Of a stretch of DNA of 64,000 bases, positions 8,348 to 63,010 are shown piece by piece. Source of the stretch: Minisyncoccota bacterium (GTDB lineage: Bacteria > Patescibacteriota > Minisyncoccia > Phycocordibacterales > UBA9973). The stretch is from contig JBAZYS010000001.1 in NCBI GenBank assembly GCA_041659205.1, positions 54,090 through 118,089 on the forward strand, written 5' to 3'. How positions within the stretch are numbered: position 1 is the stretch's first letter; every line of letters begins with the position of its first letter. Under the pieces are notes generated by a model that saw only the letters and a program-made list of their open reading frames with translations, was not told the origin of the DNA and made no database searches. Position numbers and translations under genes: made by a program.

Positions 8348-8962
8348 ATGAATTTATCTAAAATATCATCGAAATGGTTAGTAGTTATTATTGTAGGAAT
8401 TATATTTTCTGCTATAGTAATTTCATTTCTAACTTTTAGTCTACCAGTGAAGGATTCTTTTGCAGAAGCATCTTTTGTTAAAACACAGTCAGTTTTATCA
8501 GCGAAAGCAGATTTAGAATATTCATTTCGTTTGAAGATTCCAAAGATAAATGTAGATGCAACTGTAGAAAATTTAGGTCTTACTTTCGATGGTGCAATGG
8601 AGGTGCCGAAAGGTCCAGCTAACGCTGCTTGGTATAGTTTAGGAACTCCACCTGGGGACATAGGTAGTTCTGTTATCGACGGACACTCTGGGTGGAAAAA
8701 TGGTATACCGGCAGTATTTGATAATTTATATAAATTAAAAAAAGGAGACAAAATATACGTTCAAGACAAGAAAGGGATAGTTACGACTTTTGTTGTACGA
8801 GAGAGTCGCAAATATAATCCAAATGCAGACGCAACAGGAGTATTTACCTCGAGTGACGGTAAAGCACATTTGAATCTTATCACTTGTACGGGTCTATGGA
8901 ATAAAATTTGGAAAAGTCACTCAGAGAGACTTGTAGTTTTTGCTGATAAAGAGCTAAAATAG
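8348..8962 (+). CDS. sortase (transpeptidase)
   Basis: An N-terminal TM anchor is present. The catalytic His is in VIDGHSGW, the Cys in NLITCTG (TLxTC motif), and an Arg in HSERLVVF. It lies 20 nt downstream of the LPKTG protein gene. Confidence 0.8.
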   Translation: MNLSKISSKWLVVIIVGIIFSAIVISFLTFSLPVKDSFAEASFVKTQSVLSAKADLEYSFRLKIPKINVDATVENLGLTFDGAMEVPKGPANAAWYSLGTPPGDIGSSVIDGHSGWKNGIPAVFDNLYKLKKGDKIYVQDKKGIVTTFVVRESRKYNPNADATGVFTSSDGKAHLNLITCTGLWNKIWKSHSERLVVFADKELK

Positions 8963-8965
8963 TAG

Positions 8966-9715
8966 ATGAAAAAAATTGTCGTTCTCAATAAGAAAGAAGG
9001 TGAGACACCCCTTGAGGCGTTAAAGAATTTTCGTCTAAAACATAAAGAATATAAAGATGTAAAGATGACCTATGCAGGCAGGCTAGACCCAATGGCAAGT
9101 GGGGCACTCCTTATACTTCTCGGCGAAGAAACAAAAAATAAAGAAAAGTATTTAGCCTTAGAAAAAGAATATACTTTTGAAGTTCTTTTTGGTTTTGCGA
9201 CAGATACGTATGATACCTTGGGTAAAGTTATAGCTAGGCAAGATCTAGCAAAAGAAATAAGAAAAAATGAATTAAAGAAGGAAATAAAAAATAATATAAA
9301 AAGTTTTCTCGGAGAAAATAATCAAAAGTATCCAGTTTATTCTTCTAAAACAGTAAAAGGGAAACCTTTATTTATGTATGCTCGAGCTGGGGAGGAGGTA
9401 GAAATTCCTGATAGAAAGATTTTTATTAAAAAATTTAAATTAGAAAAAATAAGAGAAATAGATAATAAAAAATTATTTAAAAATGTTGAAAAAAGGATAA
9501 AAAAAGTAAAAGGTGATTTTAGGCAGGTTGAGATTATAAAAATTTGGAAAAAAGAATTACTGCTCCCAAACAAATTTTTTATAGGCAGTTTTAAAACAAA
9601 ATGTAGCAGTGGCACCTATGTGAGAGTGATTGCAAATTCTCTTGGAGAGAAAATGGATATTCCGGCCTTAGCTTTTTCTATAAAAAGGACAAAAATTGGT
9701 AAATATGTGATATAG
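8966..9715 (+). CDS. truB: tRNA pseudouridine(55) synthase TruB-like
   Basis: The catalytic motif is YAGRLDPMASGALLILLGEETK, with Asp in GRLDP. It carries a Lys-rich insertion. Confidence 0.7.
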   Translation: MKKIVVLNKKEGETPLEALKNFRLKHKEYKDVKMTYAGRLDPMASGALLILLGEETKNKEKYLALEKEYTFEVLFGFATDTYDTLGKVIARQDLAKEIRKNELKKEIKNNIKSFLGENNQKYPVYSSKTVKGKPLFMYARAGEEVEIPDRKIFIKKFKLEKIREIDNKKLFKNVEKRIKKVKGDFRQVEIIKIWKKELLLPNKFFIGSFKTKCSSGTYVRVIANSLGEKMDIPALAFSIKRTKIGKYVI

Positions 9716-9732
9716 TTAAAAAGCGAAATTAT

Positions 9733-10941
9733 ATGTTAAATATAGATAAAATAAGAGCAGATTTCAATATTTTAAGCTCAAAAGATCAAACGAAATCAAT
9801 CTATTTAGACAGTGCTTGTATGAGTTTAAAGCCTAAAGTCGTCATCGAGGTAATGAATGATTATTATCTTAATTATCCTGCTTGCGCTGGCAGAAGTTCT
9901 CATAAATTAGGTGACAAAGTTACAAAAAAAATAAAAGAAAGTAGGCAGATTATTTCAAAATTTATAAATGCAAATAGTGAAAATGAAATAATTTTTATAC
10001 GTAATACGACAGAAGGGATAAATTTGCTTGCAAATTCTCTAGGTTTAAAAAAGGGTGATGTTGTTTTGATCTCTGACAAAGAACATAACTCAAATTTAAT
10101 ACCATGGCTACTTTTACGAGATAGGGTAGGTATTATCGTAAAAATAATTCCTTCTAATGAGGACGGGAGTTTTAATTTGGATAATTTTAGTAAATTAATT
10201 TCTAGTGTGAAGTTAGTTTCAATAGTTCATACTTCGAACTTAGATGGAGGAACAAATCCCGCAAAAGAAATAATAGAAATTGCACATAAAAATAATGCTT
10301 TAGTATTTTTAGATGCAGCGCAGAGTATTCCTCATCAGAAAATCGATGTTAGGGATTTAGATGTTGATTTCTTGGCGTTTTCTGGACACAAAATGCTCGG
10401 GCCCACTGGAACTGGAGTTTTTTATGGTAAATATAAATTATTAGAAAAATTAGAACCCTTTATGGTGGGTGGAGATACGGTAGAATTTTCTACTTATGAT
10501 AGTTATAAAATGTTAGAAGCGCCAGATAAATTTGAAGCTGGGCTCCAGGATTATGCTGGAATTATTGGACTAGGGGAAGCAGTGAAATATCTAAGCAAAT
10601 TTAATTATGAAGACATAAAAGAACATGAACTAAAATTAAATACTTATATCACAGAAGAATTACAAAAAATTCCACAAATAAAAATTATTGGACCAAAAAG
10701 TGCAAGGGATCGTTCTGGAATTATTAATTTTTATATAGTCGATACTGATATGCATAAGTTCGCAATAATGCTCGACGAAATGGCAAATATTTCTATTCGT
10801 TCTGGACAGCACTGCGTACACTCTTATTTCAAGGATAAGAAGATTTATAATTCTGCTCGTGTTTCTTTTTATATATATAATACGATGGAAGATGCAGAAA
10901 CATTTATTACTAATTTAAATAAAATATTAAAAATATTATAA
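9733..10941 (+). CDS. sufS: cysteine desulfurase, class V aminotransferase (SufS/CsdA type)
   Basis: The PLP-Lys region is FLAFSGHKMLGPTGTGVFYG. The active-site Cys motif RSGQHCVHS is of the group II (SufS-like) type. Confidence 0.8.
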   Translation: MLNIDKIRADFNILSSKDQTKSIYLDSACMSLKPKVVIEVMNDYYLNYPACAGRSSHKLGDKVTKKIKESRQIISKFINANSENEIIFIRNTTEGINLLANSLGLKKGDVVLISDKEHNSNLIPWLLLRDRVGIIVKIIPSNEDGSFNLDNFSKLISSVKLVSIVHTSNLDGGTNPAKEIIEIAHKNNALVFLDAAQSIPHQKIDVRDLDVDFLAFSGHKMLGPTGTGVFYGKYKLLEKLEPFMVGGDTVEFSTYDSYKMLEAPDKFEAGLQDYAGIIGLGEAVKYLSKFNYEDIKEHELKLNTYITEELQKIPQIKIIGPKSARDRSGIINFYIVDTDMHKFAIMLDEMANISIRSGQHCVHSYFKDKKIYNSARVSFYIYNTMEDAETFITNLNKILKIL

Positions 10942-29543: not shown

Positions 29544-31525
29544 AATAAAACGTAATCTATCGTCTTTCTTTCTAAGTTTACTTCTTTTACTTTTATTTTT
29601 ACTTTATCACCTAGGCGATACCTCTTTTTCTTTTTCTGTCCGACGAGTTCTAATTTTTTTTCATTGAAAATATAAAAATCGCCACTCATATCTCGTACTC
29701 GCACGAGTCCTTCACATTTTGTTTCCAACTCCTCGACATACATACCCCATTCGGTCATTCCGCTGATTACTCCTTCGAAACTTTTCCCTATCCGCTTTGA
29801 CATATATTCTACTTGTTTGTATTTTATGGAAGCTCTTTCTGCATCTGAGGCACGTTTTTCTTGATCAGAAGAAACCAATGCAATCTTTTCATATTCCTGT
29901 AGTTCACTTATAAAATTTTCCTTTTTAACTTTATTACCCAAGAGATATTTTGTTAGAAGTCTATGGATAATGATGTCTGGATAACGTCTAATCGGGGAAG
30001 TGAAGTGCGTATAGTAAGCAAAAGCAAGCCCATAATGGCCGATATTTTTTGTAGAGTATATTGCTTTCGCCATTGAACGAATAACTGCTCTATTTACAGC
30101 GTCTGACTCATTTTTACCCTCTAAACTTAGAAGTAATTTATTTATTTCGTAAGTTGGTATCATTCCATCTTGGAGAGAAATTTTGTGGCCCAAGCTTCTT
30201 AAGAAAAACGCCAGGTCAGCCATTTTTTCTTTACTTGGGAGGTCATGGACTCTGTAGATAGACACGCTGTCGCCTTTTTCTCCTGTTTTATGGTTTTTAA
30301 AGTCTTTAATATTTTTTGGGGACAAAACTTCAGCTACTTTTTTGTTAGCTAACAACATAAACTCTTCAATTAATCTATTTGAATCACCACGTTCCTTTTT
30401 TATTACTTTGACTGGCACTCCACTTGCATCAAGCACAAATTTTACTTCTGCTTGTTCGAGAGAAATTGCACCTTTTTCAAATCTTTCCTTTGTTAGTTTT
30501 TTTGCTAAATTATTTAAAATAGAAAGTTCTTTGTGAAGTGGGGCATTTGAATTTTTAATTGCATCTTCGGCTCCTTCATAAGTAAATCTTTTTTGTGAAT
30601 GGATTACAGTACGTCCAAACCATTCAGACTTAACTTTTGCGTTTTTGTCGATAATAAAAACGGCGCTCATTGTGAGGCGGTCCTTGTCGGGGACTAAAGA
30701 GCATAAATCATTTGAAAGAATTTCTGGAAGCATTGGTATAGTTCTATCTACTAAGTAAACGGAAGTTCCTCGGCCACGGGCCTCAATGTCTAAAGCACTG
30801 TCTACCTTTACATAATAAGAAACATCAGCAATATGAATCCCAATTTCATATTCGTCAGAGTTTATTTCTTTAAAAGAAATTGCATCATCGAAATCTTTCG
30901 CATCTGAGGGGTCAATCGTAAATGTTAAGGTTTTTCTAAAGTCTCGACGTCCTACATAGTCAGATTCTTTAATTCCATTTTGTTTTATTTTCCTTGCTTC
31001 AATTTCTACTTTATTAGGAAGTTCTGAATCGAAACCTTTTTCTATCGCAATTGCATGCATTTCGGTGTCGTTGTCACCGGGTTTTCCCAAAACTTTTATT
31101 ATTTTACCAATTGGAGCCTTACTTGGATCTTTCCAAGAAATTATTTCTACGAAAACTTTTTGTCCAACTTTGGCATTATTTAAATCTTCTTTTGGAATTA
31201 AAATATCAGTATACATCTTTGTATCGTCTGGTTTAAAGAAGAATAATTTATTTTCTGTTTCCAGTATTCCCGCAAAGCGAGTTTTTGCCCGCGAAATTAT
31301 TTTTGATACTTCGGCACTTATTCGTCCACGTACTGTGGGTCCTTTGTGATGGATAACTATTTCGACAAGGTCCCCGTGGAGGGCGGTATTTAAGTGCTTG
31401 AAATCAATTTCAATGTCTTCCTCGTGACTGAGAGCTTTGACATATCCAGTGCCCTTTGAAGAGATAGAAATAATCCCTTGTAATTTGTTTAATTGTTCTT
31501 TTGTTTTGTGGTTAATTTTGTTCAT
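29540..31525 (-). CDS. rnr: ribonuclease R (RNB family 3'-5' exoribonuclease)
   Basis: N-terminal cold-shock/OB domains are present. The RNB motif is DPSDAKDFDDAISF. A C-terminal S1 domain is present. Confidence 0.88.
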   Translation of the reverse strand: MNKINHKTKEQLNKLQGIISISSKGTGYVKALSHEEDIEIDFKHLNTALHGDLVEIVIHHKGPTVRGRISAEVSKIISRAKTRFAGILETENKLFFFKPDDTKMYTDILIPKEDLNNAKVGQKVFVEIISWKDPSKAPIGKIIKVLGKPGDNDTEMHAIAIEKGFDSELPNKVEIEARKIKQNGIKESDYVGRRDFRKTLTFTIDPSDAKDFDDAISFKEINSDEYEIGIHIADVSYYVKVDSALDIEARGRGTSVYLVDRTIPMLPEILSNDLCSLVPDKDRLTMSAVFIIDKNAKVKSEWFGRTVIHSQKRFTYEGAEDAIKNSNAPLHKELSILNNLAKKLTKERFEKGAISLEQAEVKFVLDASGVPVKVIKKERGDSNRLIEEFMLLANKKVAEVLSPKNIKDFKNHKTGEKGDSVSIYRVHDLPSKEKMADLAFFLRSLGHKISLQDGMIPTYEINKLLLSLEGKNESDAVNRAVIRSMAKAIYSTKNIGHYGLAFAYYTHFTSPIRRYPDIIIHRLLTKYLLGNKVKKENFISELQEYEKIALVSSDQEKRASDAERASIKYKQVEYMSKRIGKSFEGVISGMTEWGMYVEELETKCEGLVRVRDMSGDFYIFNEKKLELVGQKKKKRYRLGDKVKIKVKEVNLERKTIDYVLL

Positions 31526-31592: not shown

Positions 31593-32975
31593 ATGAAAAA
31601 TATAAAAATGTTTTTTCTTATTTTAATAGTTTTGTTTGGGATAGGGCATTCTGTTGCTTTTGCGGCAGATCCGACTATTTCCTCAATAAGTCCTACGACT
31701 GCACATGTAGGAGATACAGTTACCTTAACAGGGACAAATTTTGGTGTGAATACTATTGTTGAATTCTTTAAAAATTACACCGATGGTACAACTGGGTTTG
31801 TGGGTGTTGGTGTCCCGCTTCCAGGAAATACTTCAACTAGTTATGCACTTACTGTTCCTCCTGGGATAAAAGGCTTAGCCACTATTCGTATTAGAAATAT
31901 GTATTCAGATATTGTAAGCAATACCATTACTTTAAATGTATTACCCATAAGTCCCGTTATTGAATATGTCGGTTCAGGTGTTGCTTATCAGGTTCCACAA
32001 AACACTGCACGTCCTGATTTAACGGAGCTATTTTTACATGGTCAGAATATTGATTCTGATTCCGTTATCGTAATTGATAATCAGATAAATGTGAATTGGG
32101 TTTATTGCACTAAAAATTTTGTAAACGATACTTGTTTTTATGTACCTTCGAGTGTTAGTGCTGGGTCGCACTCAATGCATATTAAACAAAAAGATTCCGG
32201 CCTTACTAGCAATACTGTATCTTTGACTGTTATAGATAAACCAATTATTTCTTACATTTCAAAATATCTTACGGTTGGGGCGGCAATTCAAGCTTGTGGC
32301 ATAGGATTTGATTCGAAATCTGTTGCAGTCTTTGACGGGGTGACAGAAGGTGCGCTTTTGACTCCTGGGGTGACAGTTTGTGCTAATTTTAGTATTCCTG
32401 CAACATTGAGTGCTGGCTCTCATTCGTTTCAGATTAAACAAACTGATACGAATGCATTGAGTAATTTACTCACTATTACAGTTGCTGGTGCTGTCGCTGG
32501 GACACCTCCTCCTGTTGTTCCTCCAAAATCTGATCCAATAATCAAATCTCCTCCAATTACTCCTCCAGCAGAGTGTCTCGGTGGTCCCACTGCTTGGGGA
32601 TGTAATACTCCTCCCACCACCCCTCCAATCCTTGGTTGCTCCGGTGGAAACATCTTCAACACCCAAACGGGTTTACCCTGCGTAAATAATGTAGGCAATG
32701 ACAATCAGTCTCCATCAAACTTTCCTTCACAAAGTTCAGGATCTTCGACTTACGACTTCGGTGATAAAACACTCCGTAACGGAAGCAGGGGGGAAGCAGT
32801 TAGAGAATTACAAAGATATTTAAATGATAAATTAAATCTTGGTTTAGTATTAGATGGAAAACTAGGACCAAAAACAATTGCTGTAATCAAGATGTGGCAA
32901 TCTGATCATGGCTTAGTCGCTGATGGACTCATCGGTAAGATGACTAAAGCGCAGATGCTGGCGGAGGTGAATTAG
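31593..32975 (+). CDS. secreted IPT/TIG-repeat protein with C-terminal Cys-loop plus peptidoglycan-binding (PG_binding_1-like) module; paralogue 1 of 4
   Basis: Signal peptide. IPT-like repeats include ISSISPTTAHVGDTVTLTGTNFG. A Pro-rich linker follows. The C-terminus is LGCSGGNIFNTQTGLPCVNNVGNDNQ...RNGSRGEAVRELQRYLN...DGKLGPKTIAVIKMWQ...GLVADGLIGKMT. Confidence 0.75.
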   Translation: MKNIKMFFLILIVLFGIGHSVAFAADPTISSISPTTAHVGDTVTLTGTNFGVNTIVEFFKNYTDGTTGFVGVGVPLPGNTSTSYALTVPPGIKGLATIRIRNMYSDIVSNTITLNVLPISPVIEYVGSGVAYQVPQNTARPDLTELFLHGQNIDSDSVIVIDNQINVNWVYCTKNFVNDTCFYVPSSVSAGSHSMHIKQKDSGLTSNTVSLTVIDKPIISYISKYLTVGAAIQACGIGFDSKSVAVFDGVTEGALLTPGVTVCANFSIPATLSAGSHSFQIKQTDTNALSNLLTITVAGAVAGTPPPVVPPKSDPIIKSPPITPPAECLGGPTAWGCNTPPTTPPILGCSGGNIFNTQTGLPCVNNVGNDNQSPSNFPSQSSGSSTYDFGDKTLRNGSRGEAVRELQRYLNDKLNLGLVLDGKLGPKTIAVIKMWQSDHGLVADGLIGKMTKAQMLAEVN

Positions 32976-33059
32976 ATTTAAGAAACTACAAAAGCCACTC
33001 CAGGAGAGTGGTTTTTGTTTGTGATATAATATTTATATTAGTAATTAATATTAAATTTT

Positions 33060-34982
33060 ATGAAAAAGTTAAAAGTATTTCTTTTTGTGTTAGTTGTTGT
33101 ATTAGGAGGTTTCAGTTCCGCTTTTGCAGTGACTACACCTGCTCCTGTGGTAACTATTTTGCTTCAAGACCAGCATTACAAACTTGGTTCTGGAAATTAT
33201 ATACCATCAGAATGGCTCTCTACTTTGAGTGTTCCTCAAGACCAAGACCCTGGCCGTATAATGATTAAAGGGTCTGCAACAAATGCTACTAGCTGTACTT
33301 TTGTAGGAAATGATTGGTCTGAAATTAATTCTTCTTATGTTAATAAAGTAATTTCAAATTTTCCCGGTGAAGAATTTTTGGCGATGATGGTATCAAAATT
33401 TGGAGTAGCAAATGGTGGGATGTCGAAGATTGGAACATACACTTTCTCGGTTACTTGTACAGGGCCTGGGGGGACAGGAACAGATAGAGTTACGCTAAAT
33501 ATTGTACCTCCAAATCCAAACTTTCCTTCGGCAAAACTTACAGCTTCAAAATATGCGGTTAAAGATGGAGAATCTGTCACTTTATCTTGGACTTCAGCAA
33601 ATGCAAATTCATGTTCAGGTTCTGGAAGGTGGACTATCGCAGGCGGCCCACCATATAATTCAGGTGGACCATCAGGAATTCAAATTGTAGGTCCACTTTC
33701 TAGTTCTGATTCTCCTTTTGATTTTGGTATTGATTGTTGGGGGAGTGATGGACAGGGAAATACATTAGTTAGTCCACGAAGTATTATTCTTGTGACCGCT
33801 ACTTCCGATGCACCAGTTATAACAAGCATAGATACTTCTACTCCATCTATAGGAGATACTGTTATTGTGAAAGGATCAAATTTTGATTCAAACACTATGG
33901 TTATTTTTGACAATGGGGATACTAGAGCCACTCCAACAATTATTTCTTCAACTTCTCTTAGCTTCGTTGTTCCATCTCATACCGGTTCAGGATTTAGTTA
34001 TGCTTTTAATGTTGGTACTCACAAACTTCAACTTAATAACAATGGATCATTAAGTAACTCAATTTCATTTGAAGTTGTTCCAGTTTTACAAAATACTCAT
34101 CTTACTATTGTTGAACCAGGAGGGTATAGAACTTGGAAAATTGGTAGTACTCAAATATTTAAATGGAAAACAGAAAGAGTTCCAGCTACAGCTACTGGAT
34201 ATATTAGTTTTGCGAGTGCGGGATATGGTGGGGAGGCGGTAATAAATAAAAAAATTGCAGATAATATTCCTAATACAGGGAGCTTCACATGGACTTCTGT
34301 TGGTAGGGCCGCAGACGGTTCTTCTATCCCAGCAAGTATATATCCTTATGGATTTACTGTAGTTATGAATGTTCCAGATATTGGACAGAAGGTGAGTGAT
34401 TACAAGGATCGTACTATTATTTTAAGTGAAACAGCTGGAGAAGTTTCTCCAACTCCAACTCCAACTCCAGCTCCTATACCTCTTCCTGCCCAGTGTCTGG
34501 GTGGGCCTGGAGCAACGAACAATTGTCCTGTTACAACTGGTCAATTTTGTGGGGGGATAGCAGGCATTCAATGTACTACTGGATATTCTTGTAAGCTTGA
34601 TGGTTCATATCCAGACGCAGGAGGAACTTGTATAAAAAATGTTTCTCCTAATCCAGTCTTGGGCTGCTCCGGTGGAAACATTTTCAACACTCAAACGGGA
34701 TTACCCTGCGTAAATAATGTTGGAAATGATAACCAACCTTCAGGAACACCACGTTCTTATAATTTTGGTGATAAAACACTCCGAAGTGGAAGTAGAGGAG
34801 ATGCAGTTGTAGAGTTGCAAAGATTCCTGAATGATAAATTAAATCTTGGTTTAGTATTAGACGGCAAGCTTGGACCAAAAACAATTGCTGTAATCAAGAT
34901 GTGGCAAGCTGATCATGGCTTAGTCGCTGATGGACTCATTGGTAGAATGACTAAAGCACAGATGCTGGCGGAGGTGAATTAA
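33060..34982 (+). CDS. secreted surface protein with C-terminal Cys-loop plus peptidoglycan-binding module; paralogue 2 of 4
   Basis: Signal peptide, IPT-like repeats and a PTPTPTP linker. The C-terminal module DNA is about 90-95% identical to 32635-32975. Confidence 0.75.
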   Translation: MKKLKVFLFVLVVVLGGFSSAFAVTTPAPVVTILLQDQHYKLGSGNYIPSEWLSTLSVPQDQDPGRIMIKGSATNATSCTFVGNDWSEINSSYVNKVISNFPGEEFLAMMVSKFGVANGGMSKIGTYTFSVTCTGPGGTGTDRVTLNIVPPNPNFPSAKLTASKYAVKDGESVTLSWTSANANSCSGSGRWTIAGGPPYNSGGPSGIQIVGPLSSSDSPFDFGIDCWGSDGQGNTLVSPRSIILVTATSDAPVITSIDTSTPSIGDTVIVKGSNFDSNTMVIFDNGDTRATPTIISSTSLSFVVPSHTGSGFSYAFNVGTHKLQLNNNGSLSNSISFEVVPVLQNTHLTIVEPGGYRTWKIGSTQIFKWKTERVPATATGYISFASAGYGGEAVINKKIADNIPNTGSFTWTSVGRAADGSSIPASIYPYGFTVVMNVPDIGQKVSDYKDRTIILSETAGEVSPTPTPTPAPIPLPAQCLGGPGATNNCPVTTGQFCGGIAGIQCTTGYSCKLDGSYPDAGGTCIKNVSPNPVLGCSGGNIFNTQTGLPCVNNVGNDNQPSGTPRSYNFGDKTLRSGSRGDAVVELQRFLNDKLNLGLVLDGKLGPKTIAVIKMWQADHGLVADGLIGRMTKAQMLAEVN

Positions 34983-34992
34983 ATTAATATTA

Positions 34993-35023
34993 AAAAGCGC
35001 TGCCCGAAGGCGGCGCTTTTTTT
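34993..35023 (+). terminator. rho-independent terminator
   Basis: aaaagcgctgcc-cgaa-ggcggcgcttttttt. Confidence 0.65.
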
Positions 35024-35392
35024 GTGGGATGGCTCAAGCGACTAGCCTGAGAGGAGACTGAGAAAGGAGACAGCGTCCTTTCTTGGCAGAACGAGGGATG
35101 CTCATCCTGAGGTCATGAAGACGTATCCTTCGCCTGCGAGTATTGTACCGCTCCTTACCCGACTGCCTTTTCATTTGGTTTCTCCCAAAGAAAATTGTTG
35201 AGAAGGTGAACATTCCACCGCAATGGTGAAACATTCGCAAGAAGGACTTATTCACTTTTGAGTATACTCCCATTGGGATAAAAATTGCAATTGAATACAA
35301 TTTTATTAATTTAGGTTATAATTAATGTATTAGTAATAGCGCCACGCTTTAATGGACTTTGCGCGGCATAATTTCGCAAAATTAATTATTTT

Positions 35393-38206
35393 ATGAAAAA
35401 TATTAGAATGTCGTTTCTTGTTTTGTCTGTTTTGTTTGGAATAGGGTATGTGTTTACACCTATTGCGAATGCCCAAAGTGTTGATATTCTAGGTTGCGCA
35501 AACGGAAATATTTTCAACACCCAAACTGGTTTGCTTTGTAATAACAATCAAATATCTGGAACACCTTCGTCTTATGATTTCGGTACAGTGACACTTCGTA
35601 ACGGAAGTAGGGGAGAAGCGGTGAAAGAACTTCAGAGATTTCTAAATGATAAAGAAGGACTCGGTTTAGTGATAGATGGAAAGCTCGGACCAAAAACTAT
35701 TGCTGTAATAAAAAAATGGCAAGCTGATCATGGTTTAGTTGCTGATGGGCTAGTGGGCAAGATGACAAAAGCTGAAATGAATAATGAGGCTTTAGCATTG
35801 AGTACAAACAATAGCTTATCAAATACTAATGCTAATGCTAATAATACCAATACAAATAATAATAATGTCATTAATCCTTTACCGAATCCAATACCAATAG
35901 TTACAGTTGATACTACGGCAATCCCCGTTGGAACTGGAATTAATGCTACACCGAATTTAGTAAGTATTTGGGATCGCCCCTTAGATCATGTATATGATTA
36001 TAACGGTGATCGTAACTACGACATTACCAAAGATCGTGGCTATTCAACTGTAACTTTCAAAGGAGATATTACATTAAGTTCTGCTGTGAGTGGAGGATTT
36101 TTTGAAGTTTCTTCCATAAAGCTTGTGGCTCCTAGTGGTGATGCAGGGACTTGTCTTGCTACAAATTTTTCTACTAGTTTTAATGGACAGAAAGTAGACC
36201 CAAAATATTCTGGTGGGTTAGTTCCTTCTCAGAAAGTCACTTCACTTAAATGTTATTTTGATTTTAATCAAATAGTGCGAGCCTCATCTACTGGTATAAA
36301 TGGAAATAGTATTTTTTCTCTTGATTTAGTAGTTCAAAATGTCACTGCTGGTATTAATACGCGTATTCCTAAAGCTGTTACTGCTCAGGCATTTAGTGTT
36401 TCTCATGTAAAAAGTATTTGTTCTGGTACAGATACGAAGTTTCTAACTGCTGGCGGAGGTGGTATGTTCGGAGGGGCTCCTCGAGATCCATATGCTGATG
36501 AATGTTATTTAAATTCTGATGCACCAAACAGAATAGCAGTTTATGCTTTTGGTGCGAATGAAATAAAAAAAGTAACTATCAATGATCTTCCTTGTACTAA
36601 TTTTGCAGTTCATAATTCTGCATCAAGTTCCAATAGTTCAGTCTTGCTTTGTGATGCACCTGCAATACCAAAGGGTTCAAAAATTATTATTGCCGCTGAA
36701 ACTACTAGTGGATATAAGAGTTCTGCAACTTACTTAGAAGAAGCGATAACTTCAATGCATTCAAATGCATATTTAAATGTCGTAGGTAGTTATGTAGAAT
36801 ATGCCGCATCTTGGGCTAAAATTGCGCTTGACCCTACTAAAAAAACATTGACAGACCTTGCTTTAAAGTCAGGCACAGCTGATATAAATGCTACTACTTG
36901 GAATGCTTTTTCTAGATCCTTGTCTGGTTCTTATGTAGATGCGGGTACGGTTTACAGTGAGATAACTGGAAGTAAAATTCAACCAGGGGCACGTGTATAT
37001 TACGTCATGCGCTCAGGACCACTCCTCATGTATTATCCAGAGCAAAAAGATGGAGTAGCAGGACTTACTCGCCTTGGTTCAGTTATGGGGCAGAAATTAT
37101 CTGATGGTAGTTTCCGTTTACCAGACTTAGAGAGAGATATTGCAATTGCTGCCAATAATCATCATGAGCGCACTGTTGTAACTGGAGATATCACAGATAA
37201 AATTAATACAATTGATGGGATAGTTTTTAATCCTGATGGTAGTTATGGAGTGGTGAAGGATGTGTATCGCTTACATTATGTATATAAATGTAGTGCGGCA
37301 TCCTGTAGTCCTGTCGAAGATGCAGTATCAGGGACGACACTACCTTCAAACACAATTGGTATTACAACACCGAAAGCAGGATCTAGTGTTTATCGGGATC
37401 AGCTTACTCTTATTACAAGAGGTACTGGTGCCCAGCCAGCAAATGGACGTTTAGATATATATCTTGATGGAACTTTAATTCATTCAATTCCTGAAGGCGT
37501 TAGTTTTGCTAATGGTAGTTTTGGAAATATGAATACGGCTACTTTAACTCCAGGCTCCCATACAGTAAAAGTAAATTGGCTCGACTTAGATTTGACAGGA
37601 GATAAAGTAGTTGCAACTGATTCTGTCTCATTTGTGAAGAAAACATTAGATGAACTTAAGGCAGCAGTTAGTTTTACGATTAAACCTACAACAAATTTTT
37701 CTAGTCCATTCTTTTATCGTTGGTGTGACGGTAGTGGGTGGAATTTTAATGAGCCTGTTTATCTTATGCCTACACAAGACACTATAAATGTTCAATTTAA
37801 CGATGCTAACGTTGAAACTGGACTTAGTATTACTGCACAAATAAATAATAAAGATTTAGGTTCAGCCTTAGTATCAACTGAACCAGTAAAGTTAGTCACT
37901 TATCCTACGGTAATTGGAAAAAGTTCAGGAATATTAGGTAAAATTAATTTAATTATTGTAGATTCTTCCGGTAGAACAATTATGGATGCAAGTGGAAGTT
38001 CTCCATATGTCGTTACTCAAATAACACCCACTGACTGGGACCAGGCAGGTATTTCTACCGATAGTTGTGGACCAGTAAGCTATTCAACAAATCCACCTAC
38101 CCCATATCTAAACAGTAGCGGTAATGCTTGTTTTATAACACCAGCAAAAGAAATAGAATTATTTTCTAGTACAAAAACTCCTCAACAGTTTTGTGCTACA
38201 ATTTAG
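35393..38206 (+). CDS. large secreted surface protein with the Cys-loop plus peptidoglycan-binding module at the N-terminus; paralogue 3 of 4
   Basis: A signal peptide is followed directly by ILGCANGNIFNTQTGLLCNNNQ...RNGSRGEAVKELQRFLN...DGKLGPKTIAVIKKWQ. An Asn-rich low-complexity linker follows, then about 750 aa of unknown beta-rich domains. Confidence 0.75.
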   Translation: MKNIRMSFLVLSVLFGIGYVFTPIANAQSVDILGCANGNIFNTQTGLLCNNNQISGTPSSYDFGTVTLRNGSRGEAVKELQRFLNDKEGLGLVIDGKLGPKTIAVIKKWQADHGLVADGLVGKMTKAEMNNEALALSTNNSLSNTNANANNTNTNNNNVINPLPNPIPIVTVDTTAIPVGTGINATPNLVSIWDRPLDHVYDYNGDRNYDITKDRGYSTVTFKGDITLSSAVSGGFFEVSSIKLVAPSGDAGTCLATNFSTSFNGQKVDPKYSGGLVPSQKVTSLKCYFDFNQIVRASSTGINGNSIFSLDLVVQNVTAGINTRIPKAVTAQAFSVSHVKSICSGTDTKFLTAGGGGMFGGAPRDPYADECYLNSDAPNRIAVYAFGANEIKKVTINDLPCTNFAVHNSASSSNSSVLLCDAPAIPKGSKIIIAAETTSGYKSSATYLEEAITSMHSNAYLNVVGSYVEYAASWAKIALDPTKKTLTDLALKSGTADINATTWNAFSRSLSGSYVDAGTVYSEITGSKIQPGARVYYVMRSGPLLMYYPEQKDGVAGLTRLGSVMGQKLSDGSFRLPDLERDIAIAANNHHERTVVTGDITDKINTIDGIVFNPDGSYGVVKDVYRLHYVYKCSAASCSPVEDAVSGTTLPSNTIGITTPKAGSSVYRDQLTLITRGTGAQPANGRLDIYLDGTLIHSIPEGVSFANGSFGNMNTATLTPGSHTVKVNWLDLDLTGDKVVATDSVSFVKKTLDELKAAVSFTIKPTTNFSSPFFYRWCDGSGWNFNEPVYLMPTQDTINVQFNDANVETGLSITAQINNKDLGSALVSTEPVKLVTYPTVIGKSSGILGKINLIIVDSSGRTIMDASGSSPYVVTQITPTDWDQAGISTDSCGPVSYSTNPPTPYLNSSGNACFITPAKEIELFSSTKTPQQFCATI

Positions 38207-38264
38207 TATTATTAGTTAATCCCAGAAGTAGAGCGAAACCCACTTTTGGACAAGAAAATAAATT

Positions 38265-40442
38265 ATGAAAATATTTAAAGCATCGTTTCTACTTATCTTG
38301 TTTGCAGTCATTGTATTAGGTGGTTTTGGGGTGGTAAAAAGTGCCGATGCAAGTACTTTTTCTTTGTCGAGGACATCAATAAATTTGCAGTATGACCCTC
38401 AGGGAGGGAACACTAGTGCTAACAATGCCTCACAAACTATTGGTCTGACAAATACTACAGCTTCAGATGTTACATATAGTATAAATATGCAAACAGTCTC
38501 AGATCCTTTCGCTGGCAAAATTAATCTTCTCGTTAAATATAACGCGAGGTCTGCGACAACAGGGAATTGGATCGTAGCTAGTGCTACCGACCATGCAGAT
38601 ATGGTGATACCCTCCCAACAATTAATTCTTTCACCTGGGGAAACCGTTTATTTAAGTGTTTGGGGTGGAATTGGTAACACAAATCTATTGCTTTCTCCGA
38701 CGGCATTGCAACTTGTTTCAAATATTATATTTACTGGCAATTTCTCTGATTCGCCAGTAGCTATTCCTGTGATTTGGACCAAACTCCCATATATTACTCC
38801 TACACCCACTCCGACACCAACACCCTCAACAACAACACCTACTCTTTACTCTACCGAACCAAGTCCAGGAAGATTTATTCCAGGGCAAACTATAAAAGTA
38901 TACGCACTCGGCCTTCGTTCTTCTGCGATGAATTCACTTTATATTGATGGTAAAGGTTTTAATAATATGCAATCTTGGAATCCTACTGGAACAAACTCTG
39001 GTGTACCAAATTCTTATGAAACCCTTGTTGCACTTCCTCTTGATTTATCTGCAGGAGCACATATACTTCAAATGGAGACGAGCGACGTTGTAGAAAATTT
39101 TGGAAAAGTTTTAAGTAATTCTCTTCCATTAAATATATTTCGCACTCGCGCAGAGGCAGAAAATCCAGAAGACCCAACTGTCACTTATGTAAATCCAGCA
39201 TCTGCAAAGCCAGGTGATACGGTGACGGTATACGGTACAAATTTTCACAGTGATTCGTATGTGATGCTTGATCCATATTTAGATAGTTACTCTCGGGCAC
39301 AAATGGGAACCAGGGCTACTACCGTAACCCAGACACCGACTTCAATTAGCTTTATCGTTCCTACAAAAATAACAGCTGGTAGTATGTACCCACTTATTTA
39401 CAATTTACATAGAGTGACGGTATTTCCTTCAAAAAACAAACAAGCAACAACTGTTGCATACAATGGTAGTTTATTAAATCGCTATACAATACCGAACAAT
39501 GGAGGAGAATATAGTAATGGATACTTTAATATTGTAAGTGCGGTGACATCAAGTACTCCACAAGCACCAGTCATTACTTCTATTAGTTCTTCATCAATTC
39601 CACAAGGTGGCAGTGGTTCGCGAGACAATGCTCCTGCATCTGGTGCCACTGTAACGATTACTGGATCTGGATTTTCTTCAACCTCAGCTATTGTTGTTGA
39701 CGATGACTCTAACCAATATATTCCCGACGGAATGGCTGGTGTTACTTCCACGGGATTTCCAGTTGTTTCATGGACGACTACATCAATTACATTTAGGGTG
39801 CCGTCAAATATTGCAGTAGGGCAACATTCGATCCAAGTTGGTAGTTGTGGAAATCATGGCAGTCCTTGTGGTGCTTTCCTTAGTAATCCTATTTTAGTAA
39901 CTATCACACCAAGAGGCACTGCAATGGGTAGCACTCCAGGGTACGCGACTTCAAATTTTACACCTATACCTCCACTCACTTGTACCCTCCCACAAACACT
40001 TGTAAATGGCGTTTGTACAACTCCAAGTCAAACACCTCCACCTACCTGCACATTCCCAAAAACATTAGTGAATAATGTTTGTACAAATCCGACTTCAACT
40101 TCAACACCTCTCCCAATCCTAGGCTGTTCGGCAGGTAACATATTCAACACTCAAACAGGTTTACCTTGCGTAAATAATGTTGGTAATGACAACCAATCTT
40201 CAGGAACACCAGCTCCTTACAACTTCGGCACTTCTACACTTCGAAATGGGAGCAGGGGAGAAGCAGTCATGGAATTACAGAGATTTCTAAATGATAAATT
40301 AAATCTTGGTCTAGCAGTAGATGGGAAATTAGGACCACTTACAATCGCCGTTGTGAAGGAGTGGCAAACAGAGCATGGCTTGGTCGCTGATGGTCTAATT
40401 GGTAAAATGACTAAAGCACAGATGCTGGCGGAAGTTGAATAA
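38265..40442 (+). CDS. secreted surface protein with C-terminal Cys-loop plus peptidoglycan-binding module; paralogue 4 of 4
   Basis: Signal peptide, a PTPTPTPTP linker, IPT-like segments and the internal repeat TCT[LF]P[QK]TLVN[GN]VCT. The C-terminus is ILGCSAGNIFNTQTGLPCVNNVGNDNQ followed by the PG-binding motifs. Confidence 0.75.
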   Translation: MKIFKASFLLILFAVIVLGGFGVVKSADASTFSLSRTSINLQYDPQGGNTSANNASQTIGLTNTTASDVTYSINMQTVSDPFAGKINLLVKYNARSATTGNWIVASATDHADMVIPSQQLILSPGETVYLSVWGGIGNTNLLLSPTALQLVSNIIFTGNFSDSPVAIPVIWTKLPYITPTPTPTPTPSTTTPTLYSTEPSPGRFIPGQTIKVYALGLRSSAMNSLYIDGKGFNNMQSWNPTGTNSGVPNSYETLVALPLDLSAGAHILQMETSDVVENFGKVLSNSLPLNIFRTRAEAENPEDPTVTYVNPASAKPGDTVTVYGTNFHSDSYVMLDPYLDSYSRAQMGTRATTVTQTPTSISFIVPTKITAGSMYPLIYNLHRVTVFPSKNKQATTVAYNGSLLNRYTIPNNGGEYSNGYFNIVSAVTSSTPQAPVITSISSSSIPQGGSGSRDNAPASGATVTITGSGFSSTSAIVVDDDSNQYIPDGMAGVTSTGFPVVSWTTTSITFRVPSNIAVGQHSIQVGSCGNHGSPCGAFLSNPILVTITPRGTAMGSTPGYATSNFTPIPPLTCTLPQTLVNGVCTTPSQTPPPTCTFPKTLVNNVCTNPTSTSTPLPILGCSAGNIFNTQTGLPCVNNVGNDNQSSGTPAPYNFGTSTLRNGSRGEAVMELQRFLNDKLNLGLAVDGKLGPLTIAVVKEWQTEHGLVADGLIGKMTKAQMLAEVE

Positions 40443-40507
40443 AACCCCTAAAAGGTTTAGTATATTTTAGGAGTCGAGAGGTTATTTTTTATTAAAAAAT
40501 TAATTTT

Positions 40508-40738
40508 ATGAAAATGTCAAAAGTTGTTAAAATATCTGTTTTAATGTTAGTTGTCGTGCTTGGTTCAAGTTACCTCTTTACTAATGTTGCATTCGCTAAG
40601 AAAAGATATGCTTCTCAAGCTTCTCAAAGACCTGTTTGTGAATATATGCGACCACCAGCTGGTTGTATTTGGGTAGGAATGAAGCCATTTCCAAAATGTA
40701 ATGCTGCACACTTAGAATGTGGCTTACCAACAATCTAA
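40508..40738 (+). CDS. small secreted Cys-rich peptide (hypothetical)
   Basis: 76 aa with a signal peptide (ISVLMLVVVLGSSYLFTNVAFA). The mature part has 4 Cys (CEY...GCIW...CNAAHLEC). Confidence 0.45.
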   Translation: MKMSKVVKISVLMLVVVLGSSYLFTNVAFAKKRYASQASQRPVCEYMRPPAGCIWVGMKPFPKCNAAHLECGLPTI

Positions 40739-40777
40739 ACAATTTGCCTTTTTTGAAAATTATGTTAAGCTACTGTT

Positions 40778-41086
40778 ATGTTAAAAATAAGACTTCAGAG
40801 AATAGGAAGGAAAAATGATCCAGCATTTCGGGCTGTTTTGACTGATTCGAAAAATAGCACCAAAAGTGGAAAGTTTTTAGAAATACTCGGTACTTATAAT
40901 CCTAAAGCAGGGGAGAAGAATTTACTTGCTGATAGAATTAAGTATTGGATTTCTAAGGGAGCAAAATGCTCAGACACGATGCACAATTTTTTAGTGCACG
41001 ATAAAATTATCACTGGCAAAAAAGTAAATGTATTGCCTAAAAAGAAGCCAACTGTAAAGAGAAAGGAATTGAAAGCGAAGAAGTAG
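40778..41086 (+). CDS. rpsP: ribosomal protein bS16
   Basis: MLKIRLQRIGRKNDPAFRAVLTDS plus a Lys-rich tail. Confidence 0.9.
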   Translation: MLKIRLQRIGRKNDPAFRAVLTDSKNSTKSGKFLEILGTYNPKAGEKNLLADRIKYWISKGAKCSDTMHNFLVHDKIITGKKVNVLPKKKPTVKRKELKAKK

Positions 41087-61495: not shown

Positions 61496-63010
61496 ATGGA
61501 ATTTAAAATTGAGAAAAAATTAAAAAATAGTTTAGGGCGAGTGGGGGTATTGAGTACTCCGCATGGAGATATTTTGACTCCGGCTTTTGTTGCTGTGGGG
61601 ACAAAAGCAACCATAAAGTCTTTGAATCCTGAGCAGGTGCGTGACGCTGGCACACAAGTTGTGCTTGGTAATACTTATCATTTATATTTACAACCAGGCG
61701 ATGAGATAGTACACGATGCAGGAGGCATCGGTAAATTTATGAATTGGCGGCGAAGCGATGGCGGTATTGCGCCCACTATGACGGATAGTGGAGGCTTTCA
61801 AGTTTTTTCGCTTGGTGTTGCTTATGGAAAAGATATATCAAAGATTACAAAAATTACTGATCCATCGCTTCTAATTCCTGAACGCTTTGATGACAGCGAT
61901 GCCCCTCGTTTGGCCAAAATTGGGCAGGACGGTGTTTCTTTCAAATCACATTTGGATGGTTCTATTCATTACATCACCCCTGAAAAATCAATCCAAATTC
62001 AACATAATTTAGGTGCAGATATAATTTTTGCTTTTGATGAATGTACAAGTCCGACAGAAGATTTGAAATATCAAGGAGAAGCACTTGAGCGGACACATAG
62101 GTGGGCGGAAAGGAGTTTAGCTGAACATCAAAAATTATTAATTCAGAAACAGAAGCATTCTCAGGATCTCCTGCTTCGCAACGTCGACCGTTCGCCTGCT
62201 TCTATTTCTGATACAAAAACAGAAGAATATTTTTTAGAGGGTCTCTCGCAGAGCGACGGCTCGAGAGTGAGCGCTCTGCCAGCAGACAGAGACAGCGACC
62301 CTATAAACAATGATTCTTCTGTTTTTACTCCAGCTTTATTTGGCATTGTGCAGGGCGGGAGAGAAGAATCTTTACGTAAACAATCTGCAAAAATTATTTC
62401 AGAAATAAATGTTGATGGAAAATATTTTGACGGTTTTGGTATTGGGGGGTCTTTTGCGAAGGAAGATATGTCTACAGCGGTGAGGTGGGTTAATGAAATT
62501 CTGCCAGAAGAAAAACCACGGCACTTGCTCGGCATTGGAGAGCCAGAGGATTTATTTATGGGAATAGAAAATGGAGTGGATCTTTTTGATTGTGTTTTAC
62601 CGACACGGCTTGGAAGGAATGGAACTATTTATACTAAAAAAGGAAAAATAATAATTACCAATGCAAAATTCAGAAATGACTTTGGTCCCATCGAAGATGA
62701 TTGCGGATGTTATGTGTGTTCTGCACCAGAAGCTTTTTTTTCGGGGTCGCTGTCTGTGTCTGCTGACACAGCGCTGCCTTTCGGCTCGTCAGTCTGCGAG
62801 ACACCCCACAAAAAAACTTCTGGTGCCTCACGATATTCCCGCGCATACATCGCTCACCTTTTTCATGGTAAAGAAATGCTGGCGGGAACATTAGCATCAA
62901 TTCACAACCTCCATTTCATCGTAAATTTAGTTAAAAAGATTCGGCAATCTATTATAGAAGATAATTTCTTCGAATTTAAAGAGGAATTCTTGACGGGATA
63001 TTTGAAGTAA
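61496..63010 (+). CDS. tgt: queuine tRNA-ribosyltransferase with two large GC-rich in-frame insertions
   Basis: VLGNTYHLYLQPG, IFAFDECTSP, FGIVQGG and LLGIGEPEDL are present. The Zn site is CGCYVC...RYSRAYIAHLFH. At 504 aa it is well above the about 375-aa size I expect for Tgt. Confidence 0.88.
   Translation: MEFKIEKKLKNSLGRVGVLSTPHGDILTPAFVAVGTKATIKSLNPEQVRDAGTQVVLGNTYHLYLQPGDEIVHDAGGIGKFMNWRRSDGGIAPTMTDSGGFQVFSLGVAYGKDISKITKITDPSLLIPERFDDSDAPRLAKIGQDGVSFKSHLDGSIHYITPEKSIQIQHNLGADIIFAFDECTSPTEDLKYQGEALERTHRWAERSLAEHQKLLIQKQKHSQDLLLRNVDRSPASISDTKTEEYFLEGLSQSDGSRVSALPADRDSDPINNDSSVFTPALFGIVQGGREESLRKQSAKIISEINVDGKYFDGFGIGGSFAKEDMSTAVRWVNEILPEEKPRHLLGIGEPEDLFMGIENGVDLFDCVLPTRLGRNGTIYTKKGKIIITNAKFRNDFGPIEDDCGCYVCSAPEAFFSGSLSVSADTALPFGSSVCETPHKKTSGASRYSRAYIAHLFHGKEMLAGTLASIHNLHFIVNLVKKIRQSIIEDNFFEFKEEFLTGYLK
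62161..62195. repeat. GC-rich ~35-nt repeat element, copy 3 of 3, the 5' part of an about 175-nt insertion in tgt
   Basis: tcaggatctcctgcttcgcaacgtcgaccgttcgc. Its translation [12 protein letters not shown] parallels [12 protein letters not shown] in ligA. Confidence 0.8.
62721..62828. repeat. second GC-rich in-frame insertion in tgt, about 108 nt, containing the hairpin ctgtgtc-tgctga-cacag
   Basis: It lies between the CGCYVC and RYSRAY zinc-site elements and encodes SAPEAFFSGSLSVSADTALPFGSSVCETPHKKTSGAS. Confidence 0.65.

Follow-up and report, generated by a model that had tools for sequence, protein, structure and literature searches.

A cluster of predicted exported proteins sharing a cysteine-loop and peptidoglycan-binding module in Candidatus Nomurabacteria

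In a 64,000-nucleotide stretch of contig JBAZYS010000001.1 (assembly GCA_041659205.1, positions 54,090 to 118,089; here called the window), we analyzed a lineage-specific 9.2-kb gene cluster from an uncultured, ultra-small member of Candidatus Nomurabacteria (Patescibacteria/Paceibacteria). The cluster comprises four genes linked by paralogy (g1 to g4) and one small additional gene (orf76), and all five products appear to be exported. The products of g1 to g4 each carry a single copy of a module of about 105 amino acids (aa), in which a 15-residue cysteine (Cys) loop precedes a complete PG_binding_1 domain, together with passenger regions that are far less alike. We consider it fairly probable that g1 to g4 encode surface proteins that are tethered noncovalently to the cell wall and display their passengers outwards for contact or envelope functions; their probable roles are those of adhesins or envelope components. 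Little is known at the molecular level of the surface of Patescibacteria (candidate phyla radiation), though it is decisive for host attachment, and the cluster is a clean example of what is apparently a common solution: a conserved peptidoglycan-binding tag combined with very fast-evolving Ig-like or orphan passengers.

The shared module and the proteins that carry it

A first-pass annotation, made from the sequence alone, had proposed that four consecutive genes encode signal-peptide proteins sharing a module that resembles PG_binding_1. The four open reading frames (ORFs), all on the plus strand, match its coordinates and lengths exactly (Table 1), and each contains one copy of the module that scores above the Pfam gathering cutoff for PF01471 (23 bits): 43.7 bits for g1 (E = 3.2e-11), 38.5 for g2, 42.1 for g3, and 40.7 for g4, with E values across the four genes of 1e-9 to 3e-11 and profile positions 1 to 57 of 57 covered. 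Using the g1 module as the tblastn query, we recovered exactly these four copies (E = 1e-47 to 1e-77) and no fifth copy in the 64-kb window. As the annotation had it, the module occupies the C terminus of g1, g2, and g4 and lies right behind the signal peptide in g3.

The Cys loop of the module (C-[SA]-[GAN]-G-N-I-F-N-T-Q-T-G-L-[PL]-C in the window) is followed by a low-complexity spacer of variable length and by a lead-in (Y-[DN]-F-G-x-x-T-L-R-x-G-S-R-G) that runs into PG_binding_1; the loop lies no more than about 60 residues N-terminal of the domain in all four signal-peptide proteins. Both Cys residues and the central Gly of the loop are invariant in the module alignment (A2), and the ratio of nonsynonymous to synonymous divergence (dN/dS) between copies of the module is 0.05 to 0.17, in keeping with purifying selection. 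Among solved structures, the module profile matched the Zn D-Ala-D-Ala carboxypeptidase of Streptomyces albus (1LBU; E = 5e-11), the endolysin 7RUM, SleB (6TCI and 4FET), and phiKZ gp144 (3BKH). These matches cover the helical domain only and never the Cys loop, and the loop is also outside the match in the 157 phage records, mostly endolysins, that the module identified. Neither Pfam, NCBIfam, nor any solved structure that we found includes the loop. Our literature search returned no description of it or of such arrays, the nearest accounts being those of Kuroda et al. (mBio 2024; PMC10936435) and general S-layer work.

The products of g1 to g4 all begin with a Lys-rich segment, a hydrophobic segment, and then an AXA segment, in agreement with the signal peptides that had been proposed, and this is the sole hydrophobic stretch in each protein (19-residue windows). 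Read by eye, all five cluster proteins have the features of a type I Sec signal peptide, namely, a charged N-region, a hydrophobic core of 10 to 16 residues, a small-x-small site, and no lipobox Cys. The putative cleavage sites are AFA/A in g1, AFA/V in g2, ANA/Q in g3, ADA/S in g4, and AFA/K in orf76, giving predicted signal peptides of aa 1-24, 1-23, 1-27, and 1-29 for g1 to g4. Cys counts are even in all five proteins (8, 12, 14, 8, and 4), as expected for oxidized extracytoplasmic proteins. The large module-bearing proteins are acidic (pI, 5.6 to 5.8), and Ser, Thr, Asn, and Gly make up 36 to 40% of their residues. None of the cluster proteins has an LPXTG-type C terminus with a hydrophobic segment and a basic tail; a lone IPNTG in g2 (aa 403) is internal, with no hydrophobic segment after it. 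There is likewise no hydrophobic segment beyond the N terminus that could act as a membrane anchor, and Pfam, NCBIfam, PADLOC, and PDB sequence searches detected no catalytic domain in g1 to g4. The combination of secretion signals and a wall-binding module with no sortase signal, membrane anchor, or detectable catalytic domain is consistent with the wall-anchored surface-protein family that the first-pass annotation had predicted.

That annotation had also regarded the rest of the proteins as divergent. This is true of g3, which shares only its start with the signal peptide and the module with the other proteins, but g1, g2, and g4 are paralogs that can be aligned collinearly over most of their sequence. 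Identity is 36% between g1 aa 26-459 and g4 aa 303-724, 37% between g1 aa 105-460 and g2 aa 229-640, and 35% between g2 aa 176-639 and g4 aa 237-724, in alignments that span 430 to 530 columns. From the N terminus, g1 consists of three TIG-like units, a Pro-rich linker with one small Cys loop, and the module. The corresponding order in g2 is a beta-rich region of about 225 aa, a TIG domain, a 130-aa segment, a Pro/Thr linker with three extra Cys pairs, and the module, and that in g4 is a beta-rich N-terminal domain of about 150 aa, a (TP)n linker, two or three TIG-like units, Cys-loop repeats, and the module. The two Cys-loop repeats of g4 are 22 aa long and correspond to a 66-nt duplication (39968-40099). 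Pro/Thr linkers had been predicted and are present, with extra small Cys loops.

IPT/TIG repeats had been attributed to the variable parts in general; we found them in three of the four proteins. The Pfam TIG profile (PF01833) matched g2 aa 252-337 (36.7 bits) and g4 aa 457-533 (21.5 bits, scored on the g4 segment), and its best score in g1 (20.1 bits) was just under the 20.9-bit cutoff. With a profile that we built from the window's own units, for which the best of 400 shuffled decoys scored 8 bits, TIG-like units were identified at g1 aa 26-118, 146-215, and 215-298 (85 to 112 bits), at g2 aa 250-341, and at g4 aa 302-388 and 433-549, with a marginal third unit at g4 aa 206-292 (9 bits). Neither profile found a unit in g3. 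The other variable segments gave only sub-threshold Ig-like hints (Big_13, Big_2, fn3_5, and PKD). A homolog search with the g4 variable part returned g4 alone, but this word-indexed search, in which only 8,000 candidates were scored, missed even g2, although the searched collection contains it, and is weak evidence.

In g3, the signal peptide and the module are followed by an Asn-rich low-complexity linker (aa ∼135-170) and the passenger region. The passenger matched only itself among 5.8 billion proteins and in an exhaustive HMMER scan of 1.84 billion representative proteins, and it had no PDB sequence match; as the HMMER scan was exhaustive, its orphan status is solid at the sequence level. 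Weak Ig-like hints at aa 654-731 (Big_7 and TcfC E-set) were both below the cutoff. A 65-nt stretch at the start of g3, 11 nt of which precede the ATG, shares 81% DNA identity with g1. The g3 module is closer to the three siblings (151 to 157 bits; 71 to 76% identity) than to any external module (at most 137 bits). Outside the window, C-terminal-type modules are its best relatives, which supports the earlier proposal of domain shuffling, here within this lineage; within single loci of other Patescibacteria, N-terminal and C-terminal PG_binding_1 copies are only 36 to 48% identical. In a plausible scenario, a start region and signal peptide like those of g1 joined a sibling-type module, which became fused via the Asn-rich linker to an unrelated reading frame.

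Divergence and exchange of the module among paralogs

The module DNA of g1 and g2 had been described as 90 to 95% identical, and this had been taken as a sign of recent gene conversion. Two short g1/g2 tracts do reach such values (91% over 66 nt and 94.6% over 92 nt, after a shift of 2 to 3 nt), but over the whole module, identity is 82 to 83% in DNA, 87% in protein, and 69% at third positions (synonymous divergence [dS], 0.67; dN/dS, 0.13), and the other module pairs are 69 to 78% identical in DNA, with a dS of at least 1. Because the nucleotide identity of g1 and g2 (83%) is not higher than their protein identity, the argument for recent conversion from near-identical DNA fails on the criterion that the first-pass annotation itself had set.

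We therefore do not rely on overall identity and instead compared silent differences, calculating the fraction of identical-amino-acid codons that differ silently in the module and in the variable part (Fisher test). For g1/g2, this fraction was 0.60 in the variable part and 0.29 in the module (P = 6e-5); the corresponding values were 0.61 and 0.43 for g2/g4 (P = 0.012) and 0.57 and 0.43 for g1/g4 (P = 0.09). The variable part of g3 was not aligned with the others, and its module gave fractions of 0.43 with g1, 0.49 with g2, and 0.56 with g4. The expectation for independent codon choice, i.e., saturation, is 0.58 to 0.60. As the variable parts equal this expectation, g1, g2, and g4 are old. 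The values support homogenization of the g1/g2 module well after the genes diverged, followed by substantial change, which amounts to older concerted evolution. Exchange is clear only for g1/g2; it is weaker for g4 and not detectable for g3/g4.

Silent differences between g1 and g2 are also unevenly spread along the module, with 2 of 30 in the last 36 codons and 24 of 60 upstream (P = 0.001 in a Fisher test that was chosen post hoc, after the data had been seen, a point against it). The longest run without a silent difference gave a permutation P value of 0.018. This tract of about 100 nt at the 3′ end of the module (Table 1) is likely a younger conversion tract. Hence, exchange between g1 and g2 did happen and includes one younger tract, but it was mostly not recent. 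It also tells against exchange as the sole explanation that the lower silent divergence of the module could partly reflect site-specific codon or mRNA constraints. According to the silent sites, paralogs that have otherwise diverged to saturation have exchanged their tag.

The similarity among the window's modules is also visible against external sequences. Its four PG-binding cores are 80 to 91% identical to one another and 76 to 80% identical to the best external sequence. At external loci, neighboring cores are 36 to 79% identical, and in 53 of 55 pairs this is lower than the best match elsewhere (80 to 94%).

Occurrence, insertion site, and gene layout

Searching with the module alone yielded many small-to-large proteins of Paceibacterota, Nomurabacteria, and the "Patescibacteria group." We fetched 79 metagenome loci with the module alignment and scanned them with a hidden Markov model built from it. 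Module-bearing signal-peptide ORFs numbered one in 47 loci, two in 23, three in 8, and four in 1; within a locus they are on the same strand, and many of the single-copy cases are short contigs. The module is C-terminal in 71 complete ORFs and right behind the signal peptide in 27. Of 112 distinct module ORFs, 100 contained the Cys loop (metagenome consensus, CxxGxxFSxxTGxxC; one to seven copies), compared with 2 of the 1,790 other ORFs of the same loci. In these bacteria, the loop is nearly always coupled to PG_binding_1. Ten sampled external module proteins had Ig-like, PKD, fn3, He_PIG, Big, or CarboxypepD_reg passengers, or none known, and no enzyme domain was found in them. Clusters of secreted module proteins with the tag at either terminus are common in Patescibacteria metagenomes.

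Some of these loci share a recurrent gene set (L086, L089, L093, L103, L109, L119, L132, L136, L147, L148, L150, L151, and L157). It contains a protein of 1,100 to 1,300 aa with an N-terminal PG_binding_1 domain (start MSKLLKSKFLLG...) and, a few kilobases downstream, a second protein, about 300 aa long, whose Cys-loop module is at the C terminus (start MIKKLKIGLL...). A C-terminal-module protein of 1,700 aa comes next in L093 and L151 and also occurs in L090, where the large N-terminal-module protein was not seen. The set looks like a conserved patescibacterial envelope gene cluster.

The cluster in the window lies between the divergent RNase R gene (rnr) and rpsP. The flanking genes encode ThrRS, NusB, RNase III, SMC, a pilin-like protein, a PBP5/CapA fusion, and RNase R upstream and include rpsP, KhpA, trmD, and rpoB downstream. 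RNase R is 79 to 80% identical to the best match among 80 genomes. In about 60 related genomes, rpsP adjoins RNase R in divergent orientation, with a gap of 50 to 100 bp in most of them. The gap measures 0.4 to 3.5 kb in some relatives and is then usually occupied by a single unrelated gene, in many cases encoding a small secreted protein or lipoprotein (for example, L007 9441-9848, L011 8909-9868, L020 8711-9775, L021 700-1584, and L032 8712-9857; the junction is just upstream of the RNase R match in L001 to L080, at about 8500 to 10000 in locus coordinates). No module and no relative of g1 to g4 was present within 10 kb of the junction in the ∼60 related loci, including the closest genomes found, in which the array is absent from this site. 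The 9.2-kb cluster is thus specific to its lineage and fills a junction that is variable in the group and seems to act as a hot spot for exported proteins particular to single lineages.

We found no support for a mobile-element origin of the insertion: its borders carry no integrase, transposase, or tRNA, the flanks are housekeeping genes, and the GC content of the cluster (0.37 to 0.40) is only slightly above that of its neighbors. Variation driven by a diversity-generating retroelement or other repeats was rejected. The 64-kb window contains no template/variable repeat pair, its only repeats being the modules, the signal-peptide regions, and the 66-nt duplication in g4, and no reverse transcriptase was found among ten neighboring ORFs that we scanned. 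A role in defense was dismissed for lack of PADLOC hits.

TABLE 1 Positions of the cluster genes, their modules, and associated features in the window
Feature	Position	Strand	Description
g1	31593-32975	+	460 aa
g2	33060-34982	+	640 aa; NCBI MFA5840726.1
g3	35393-38206	+	937 aa; NCBI MFA5840727.1
g4	38265-40442	+	725 aa; NCBI MFA5840728.1
orf76	40508-40738	+	Fifth, small gene; 76 aa; NCBI MFA5840729.1
g1 module	32628-32972	+	Cys loop 32637-32681 (CSGGNIFNTQTGLPC), Ser/Asn spacer, PG_binding_1 32787-32957
g2 module	34656-34979	+	Cys loop 34665-34709, PG_binding_1 34794-34964
g3 module	35486-35794	+	Cys loop 35495-35539, PG_binding_1 35609-35779; N-terminal, aa 32-134
g4 module	40116-40439	+	Cys loop 40125-40169, PG_binding_1 40254-40424
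g1 module 3′ tract	32865-32972	+	Nearly identical to g2 34872-34979; holds the longest exact shared run (36 nt)
g3 passenger region	35795-38203	+	803 aa; no detectable homolog
Terminator-like hairpin after g1	32996-33016	+	CCACTC-CAGGA-GAGTGG, then TTTTTGTTTG; read from the sequence
Strong bidirectional intrinsic terminator hairpin	34990-35022		Directly 3′ of g2; GCGCTGCC-CGAA-GGCGGCGC, A and T runs on the flanks
Noncoding stretch, relatively GC rich	35023-35260		240 nt; separates g1-g2 from g3-g4
RNase R gene	29540-31525	-	Left border, divergent from g1; Pfam RNB/CSD2/S1
rpsP	40778-41086	+	Ribosomal protein S16; right border; 82 to 92% identical to rpsP beside RNase R in relatives

The four genes had been described as a tandem array. 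They are consecutive, but the array is interrupted by intrinsic terminators after g1 and after g2 and by a noncoding gap of 370 bp before g3. The inverted repeat after g1 is also listed on the minus strand, and a TGnTATAAT box lies between it and g2. The hairpin after g2 was matched by the terminator parts of several small RNA models. With only 58 bp and no terminator between them, g3 and g4 are probably cotranscribed, and the cluster probably forms three transcription units (g1, g2, and g3-g4-orf76).

The GC-rich stretch, which lies beyond the g2 terminator and ahead of the g3 promoter region, may encode an unannotated small RNA. It folds more stably than shuffled sequence (z = −2.3 on the plus strand and −3.2 on the minus strand), and there is a sigma-70-like box on the minus strand (35290 to 35261), with the bidirectional terminator downstream on that strand. 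No Rfam family matched the stretch, and BLAST against 160 fetched loci found nothing similar.

The small gene orf76 was predicted both in an independent assembly and by NCBI. Its product has a signal peptide (VAFA/KK) and then a basic 46-aa tail with four Cys residues, without the module; it matched no family, and its sequence cluster is a singleton. The start region resembles that of g2 in the repeat comparison within the window. The gene could encode a small secreted partner or be a remnant of a fifth cluster gene.

Window positions 34955-40772 agree at 100% identity with a contig from the independent Logan assembly of run SRR18595301, so the sequence of g3, g4, and orf76 is not an assembly artifact. 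The left end of this contig (L081) is at window position 34955, inside the 3′ end of the g2 module, which shares exact runs of 27 to 36 nt with g1 and g4. Since a k-mer-based assembly of the same sample breaks within this part, the repeated module appears to be an assembly hazard. An exact look-up returned records for g2 to g4 and none for g1, for which a different start was perhaps called.

Just upstream of the cluster are the type IV pilin-like protein (27023-27577, plus strand; N_methyl motif) and a D-Ala-D-Ala carboxypeptidase (Peptidase_S11) fused to a CapA/PGA_cap domain (27597-29543, minus strand). The fusion is not universal, as several relatives match in the CapA half only. At the far end, an ORF that runs off the window (63103-64000, plus strand) has a hydrophobic N-terminal segment and 42-aa (126-nt) repeats with the motif G.AFD.VTNS.WV. 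The repeats resemble a YVTN/NHL-type beta-propeller, and the product is likely another surface protein. Inverted repeats of 94 nt (62224-62317 and 62728-62821; 76% complementary, 410 nt apart) lie in or near the 61496-63010 ORF.

Proposed role and relation to known systems

We propose that each protein would be exported by the Sec pathway and its signal peptide cut at the AXA site. The tag, composed of a 15-residue disulfide loop (CxxGxxF[NS]xxTGxxC), a short spacer, and the three-helix bundle of PG_binding_1, would then hold the protein noncovalently on peptidoglycan, most likely in the cell's own wall; the cell makes peptidoglycan, as the window encodes a D-Ala-D-Ala carboxypeptidase. The passenger would point outwards, carried by Pro/Thr linkers to which small disulfide loops add stiffness, as a string of Ig-like TIG beta-sandwich units in g1, g2, and g4 and as an orphan region of 800 aa in g3. 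The likely role would be cell-cell or cell-substrate contact or the formation of an envelope layer. In evolutionary terms, g1, g2, and g4 would be old duplicates with saturated silent sites whose tag was exchanged between copies later, and purifying selection plus occasional exchange would keep the tags similar.

Several points weigh against this proposal. Wall hydrolases are the classic context of PG_binding_1, where it serves as an accessory domain. No family could be assigned to roughly half of g2, to the first 180 aa of g4, or to any of the g3 passenger, and an unrecognized enzyme domain in these regions is conceivable. The folds suggested for the variable parts come from weak or moderate profiles, and AlphaFold2 gave predicted local distance difference test scores of ∼32 for g3 (single sequence) and g4 (aligned with g1 and g2). 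Finally, the sequence does not distinguish the cell's own wall from that of a host bacterium.

This last point leads to an alternative in which the tag binds host peptidoglycan while the other end of the protein stays on the epibiont, making the proteins determinants of host attachment or host range. Cultivated Patescibacteria are all obligate episymbionts according to PMC12206443, and according to Kuroda et al. (PMC10936435), the signal-peptide genes with the highest expression in three Paceibacteria include those of secreted proteins with peptidoglycan-binding domains and of others with Ig-like folds. The peptidoglycan-binding ones were highly expressed during parasitism, and a host-attachment role was proposed. 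A lineage-specific cluster at a junction that holds different small secreted genes in relatives is as expected of host-interaction genes, and the passengers evolve very fast, every 90% cluster being a singleton and g3 an orphan. However, g1 to g4 lack a second anchor (membrane segment, lipobox, sortase signal, or pilin-like N terminus) to hold them on the producer, and a conserved tag with a variable passenger fits better with the anchor facing in and the variable end facing out. The hosts treated by Kuroda et al. (PMC10936435) are, moreover, archaea, which have no murein. We regard binding to a host wall as unlikely. It is more improbable still that the proteins are subunits of an S-layer or envelope lattice tethered by the module, an idea that suits g3 best with its N-terminal anchor and large unique body. 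A terminal wall-binding domain on a large acidic body rich in Ser, Thr, Asn, and Gly is typical of such subunits, S-layers are reported to be prevalent in Patescibacteria, and peptidoglycan-binding anchors can be used by bacterial S-layer proteins (bioRxiv 10.1101/2024.05.28.596244; PMC13293708); the large N-terminal PG_binding_1 proteins of 1,100 to 1,300 aa also recur beside C-terminal-module proteins in many metagenome loci. Against this, no known S-layer protein and no SLH or CWB2 anchor was matched in Pfam, NCBIfam, and PDB sequence searches, and four different paralogs, one of them unique to this genome, exceed the needs of a single lattice.

We give very little credence to the possibility that the module targets an unrecognized catalytic domain to the cell's own or a host's peptidoglycan, as in wall-remodeling or lytic enzymes. 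Wall hydrolases are where PG_binding_1 mostly occurs, the PDB and phage matches of the module are without exception enzymes of this kind, the JGI label for g3 is [quoted passage not shown] and the 803-aa g3 passenger is uncharacterized. The best partial NCBIfam hits are likewise SleB and peptidoglycan hydrolases, yet every hydrolase hit is limited to the binding domain, with 13 to 38 bits against cutoffs of 136 to 500. No catalytic family was detected in g1 to g4 or in the ten external module proteins, and the passenger units that can be recognized are Ig-like beta-sandwiches.

Noncovalent tethering to the cell's own wall with an outward passenger is thus the reading we favor. A broader extension of it, which we find possible but rather doubtful, is that the CxxGxxF[SN]xxTGxxC loop and PG_binding_1 form a Patescibacteria-specific envelope anchor that has no curated model or solved structure. 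Its cargo, including orphans, would make up the outer contact surface or S-layer of ultra-small episymbionts, exchange would keep the anchor uniform as the displayed parts diverge, and the rnr/rpsP junction would be a recurrent landing site. If this were true, a uniform tag with passengers diverged beyond recognition would be the pattern of an arms race with hosts or phages.

Noncovalent wall anchors of monoderm bacteria include LysM, SH3b, CWB2, SLH, GW, and choline-binding modules. The window's proteins are like these wall-bound proteins in having a predicted Sec signal, a terminal wall-binding module, a variable Ig-like display, membership in multigene families, and a module that is similar among paralogs. 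They differ in that the anchor is a single-copy PG_binding_1 domain after a predicted 15-residue disulfide loop and not a set of tandem classic repeats. With wall hydrolases (1LBU, 4FET, 6TCI, 3BKH, and endolysins), the proteins share a homologous domain of about 60 aa (E = 5e-11 to 1e-5), and phage endolysins are 42 to 47% identical to the PG-binding domain of the module. In the hydrolases, however, this domain is paired with a catalytic domain, none of which was found in the window proteins, and none of the hydrolases matches the Cys loop or the YNFG..TL+NGS lead-in. In regard to IPT/TIG repeats (PF01833), g2 and g4 pass the cutoff and the other units are linked by our own profile; the units are very divergent, and g3 has none.

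A close likeness is with the Paceibacteria proteins of Kuroda et al. (Ca. Yanofskyibacterium and Minisyncoccus; PMC10936435), which come from the same bacterial class and by their description have signal peptides, PG_binding-type domains, and Ig-like or PKD folds. The passages of that paper on these proteins do not describe a Cys loop, tandem clusters, two tag orientations, or exchange between paralogs. They refer to the proteins as "extracellular enzymes," whereas no enzyme domain is detectable in the window cluster. Because Kuroda et al. (PMC10936435) reported such secreted proteins, this kind of protein is already on record, and we assign the cluster to a known, widespread, and poorly characterized kind of patescibacterial surface-protein cluster. 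The finding is real and fairly ordinary and does not overturn current views. Specialists may find use in the Cys loop, which has no curated model, in the orphan passenger of g3, and in the variable rnr/rpsP junction, and the cluster supplies candidates for surface-proteome, binding, and localization work.

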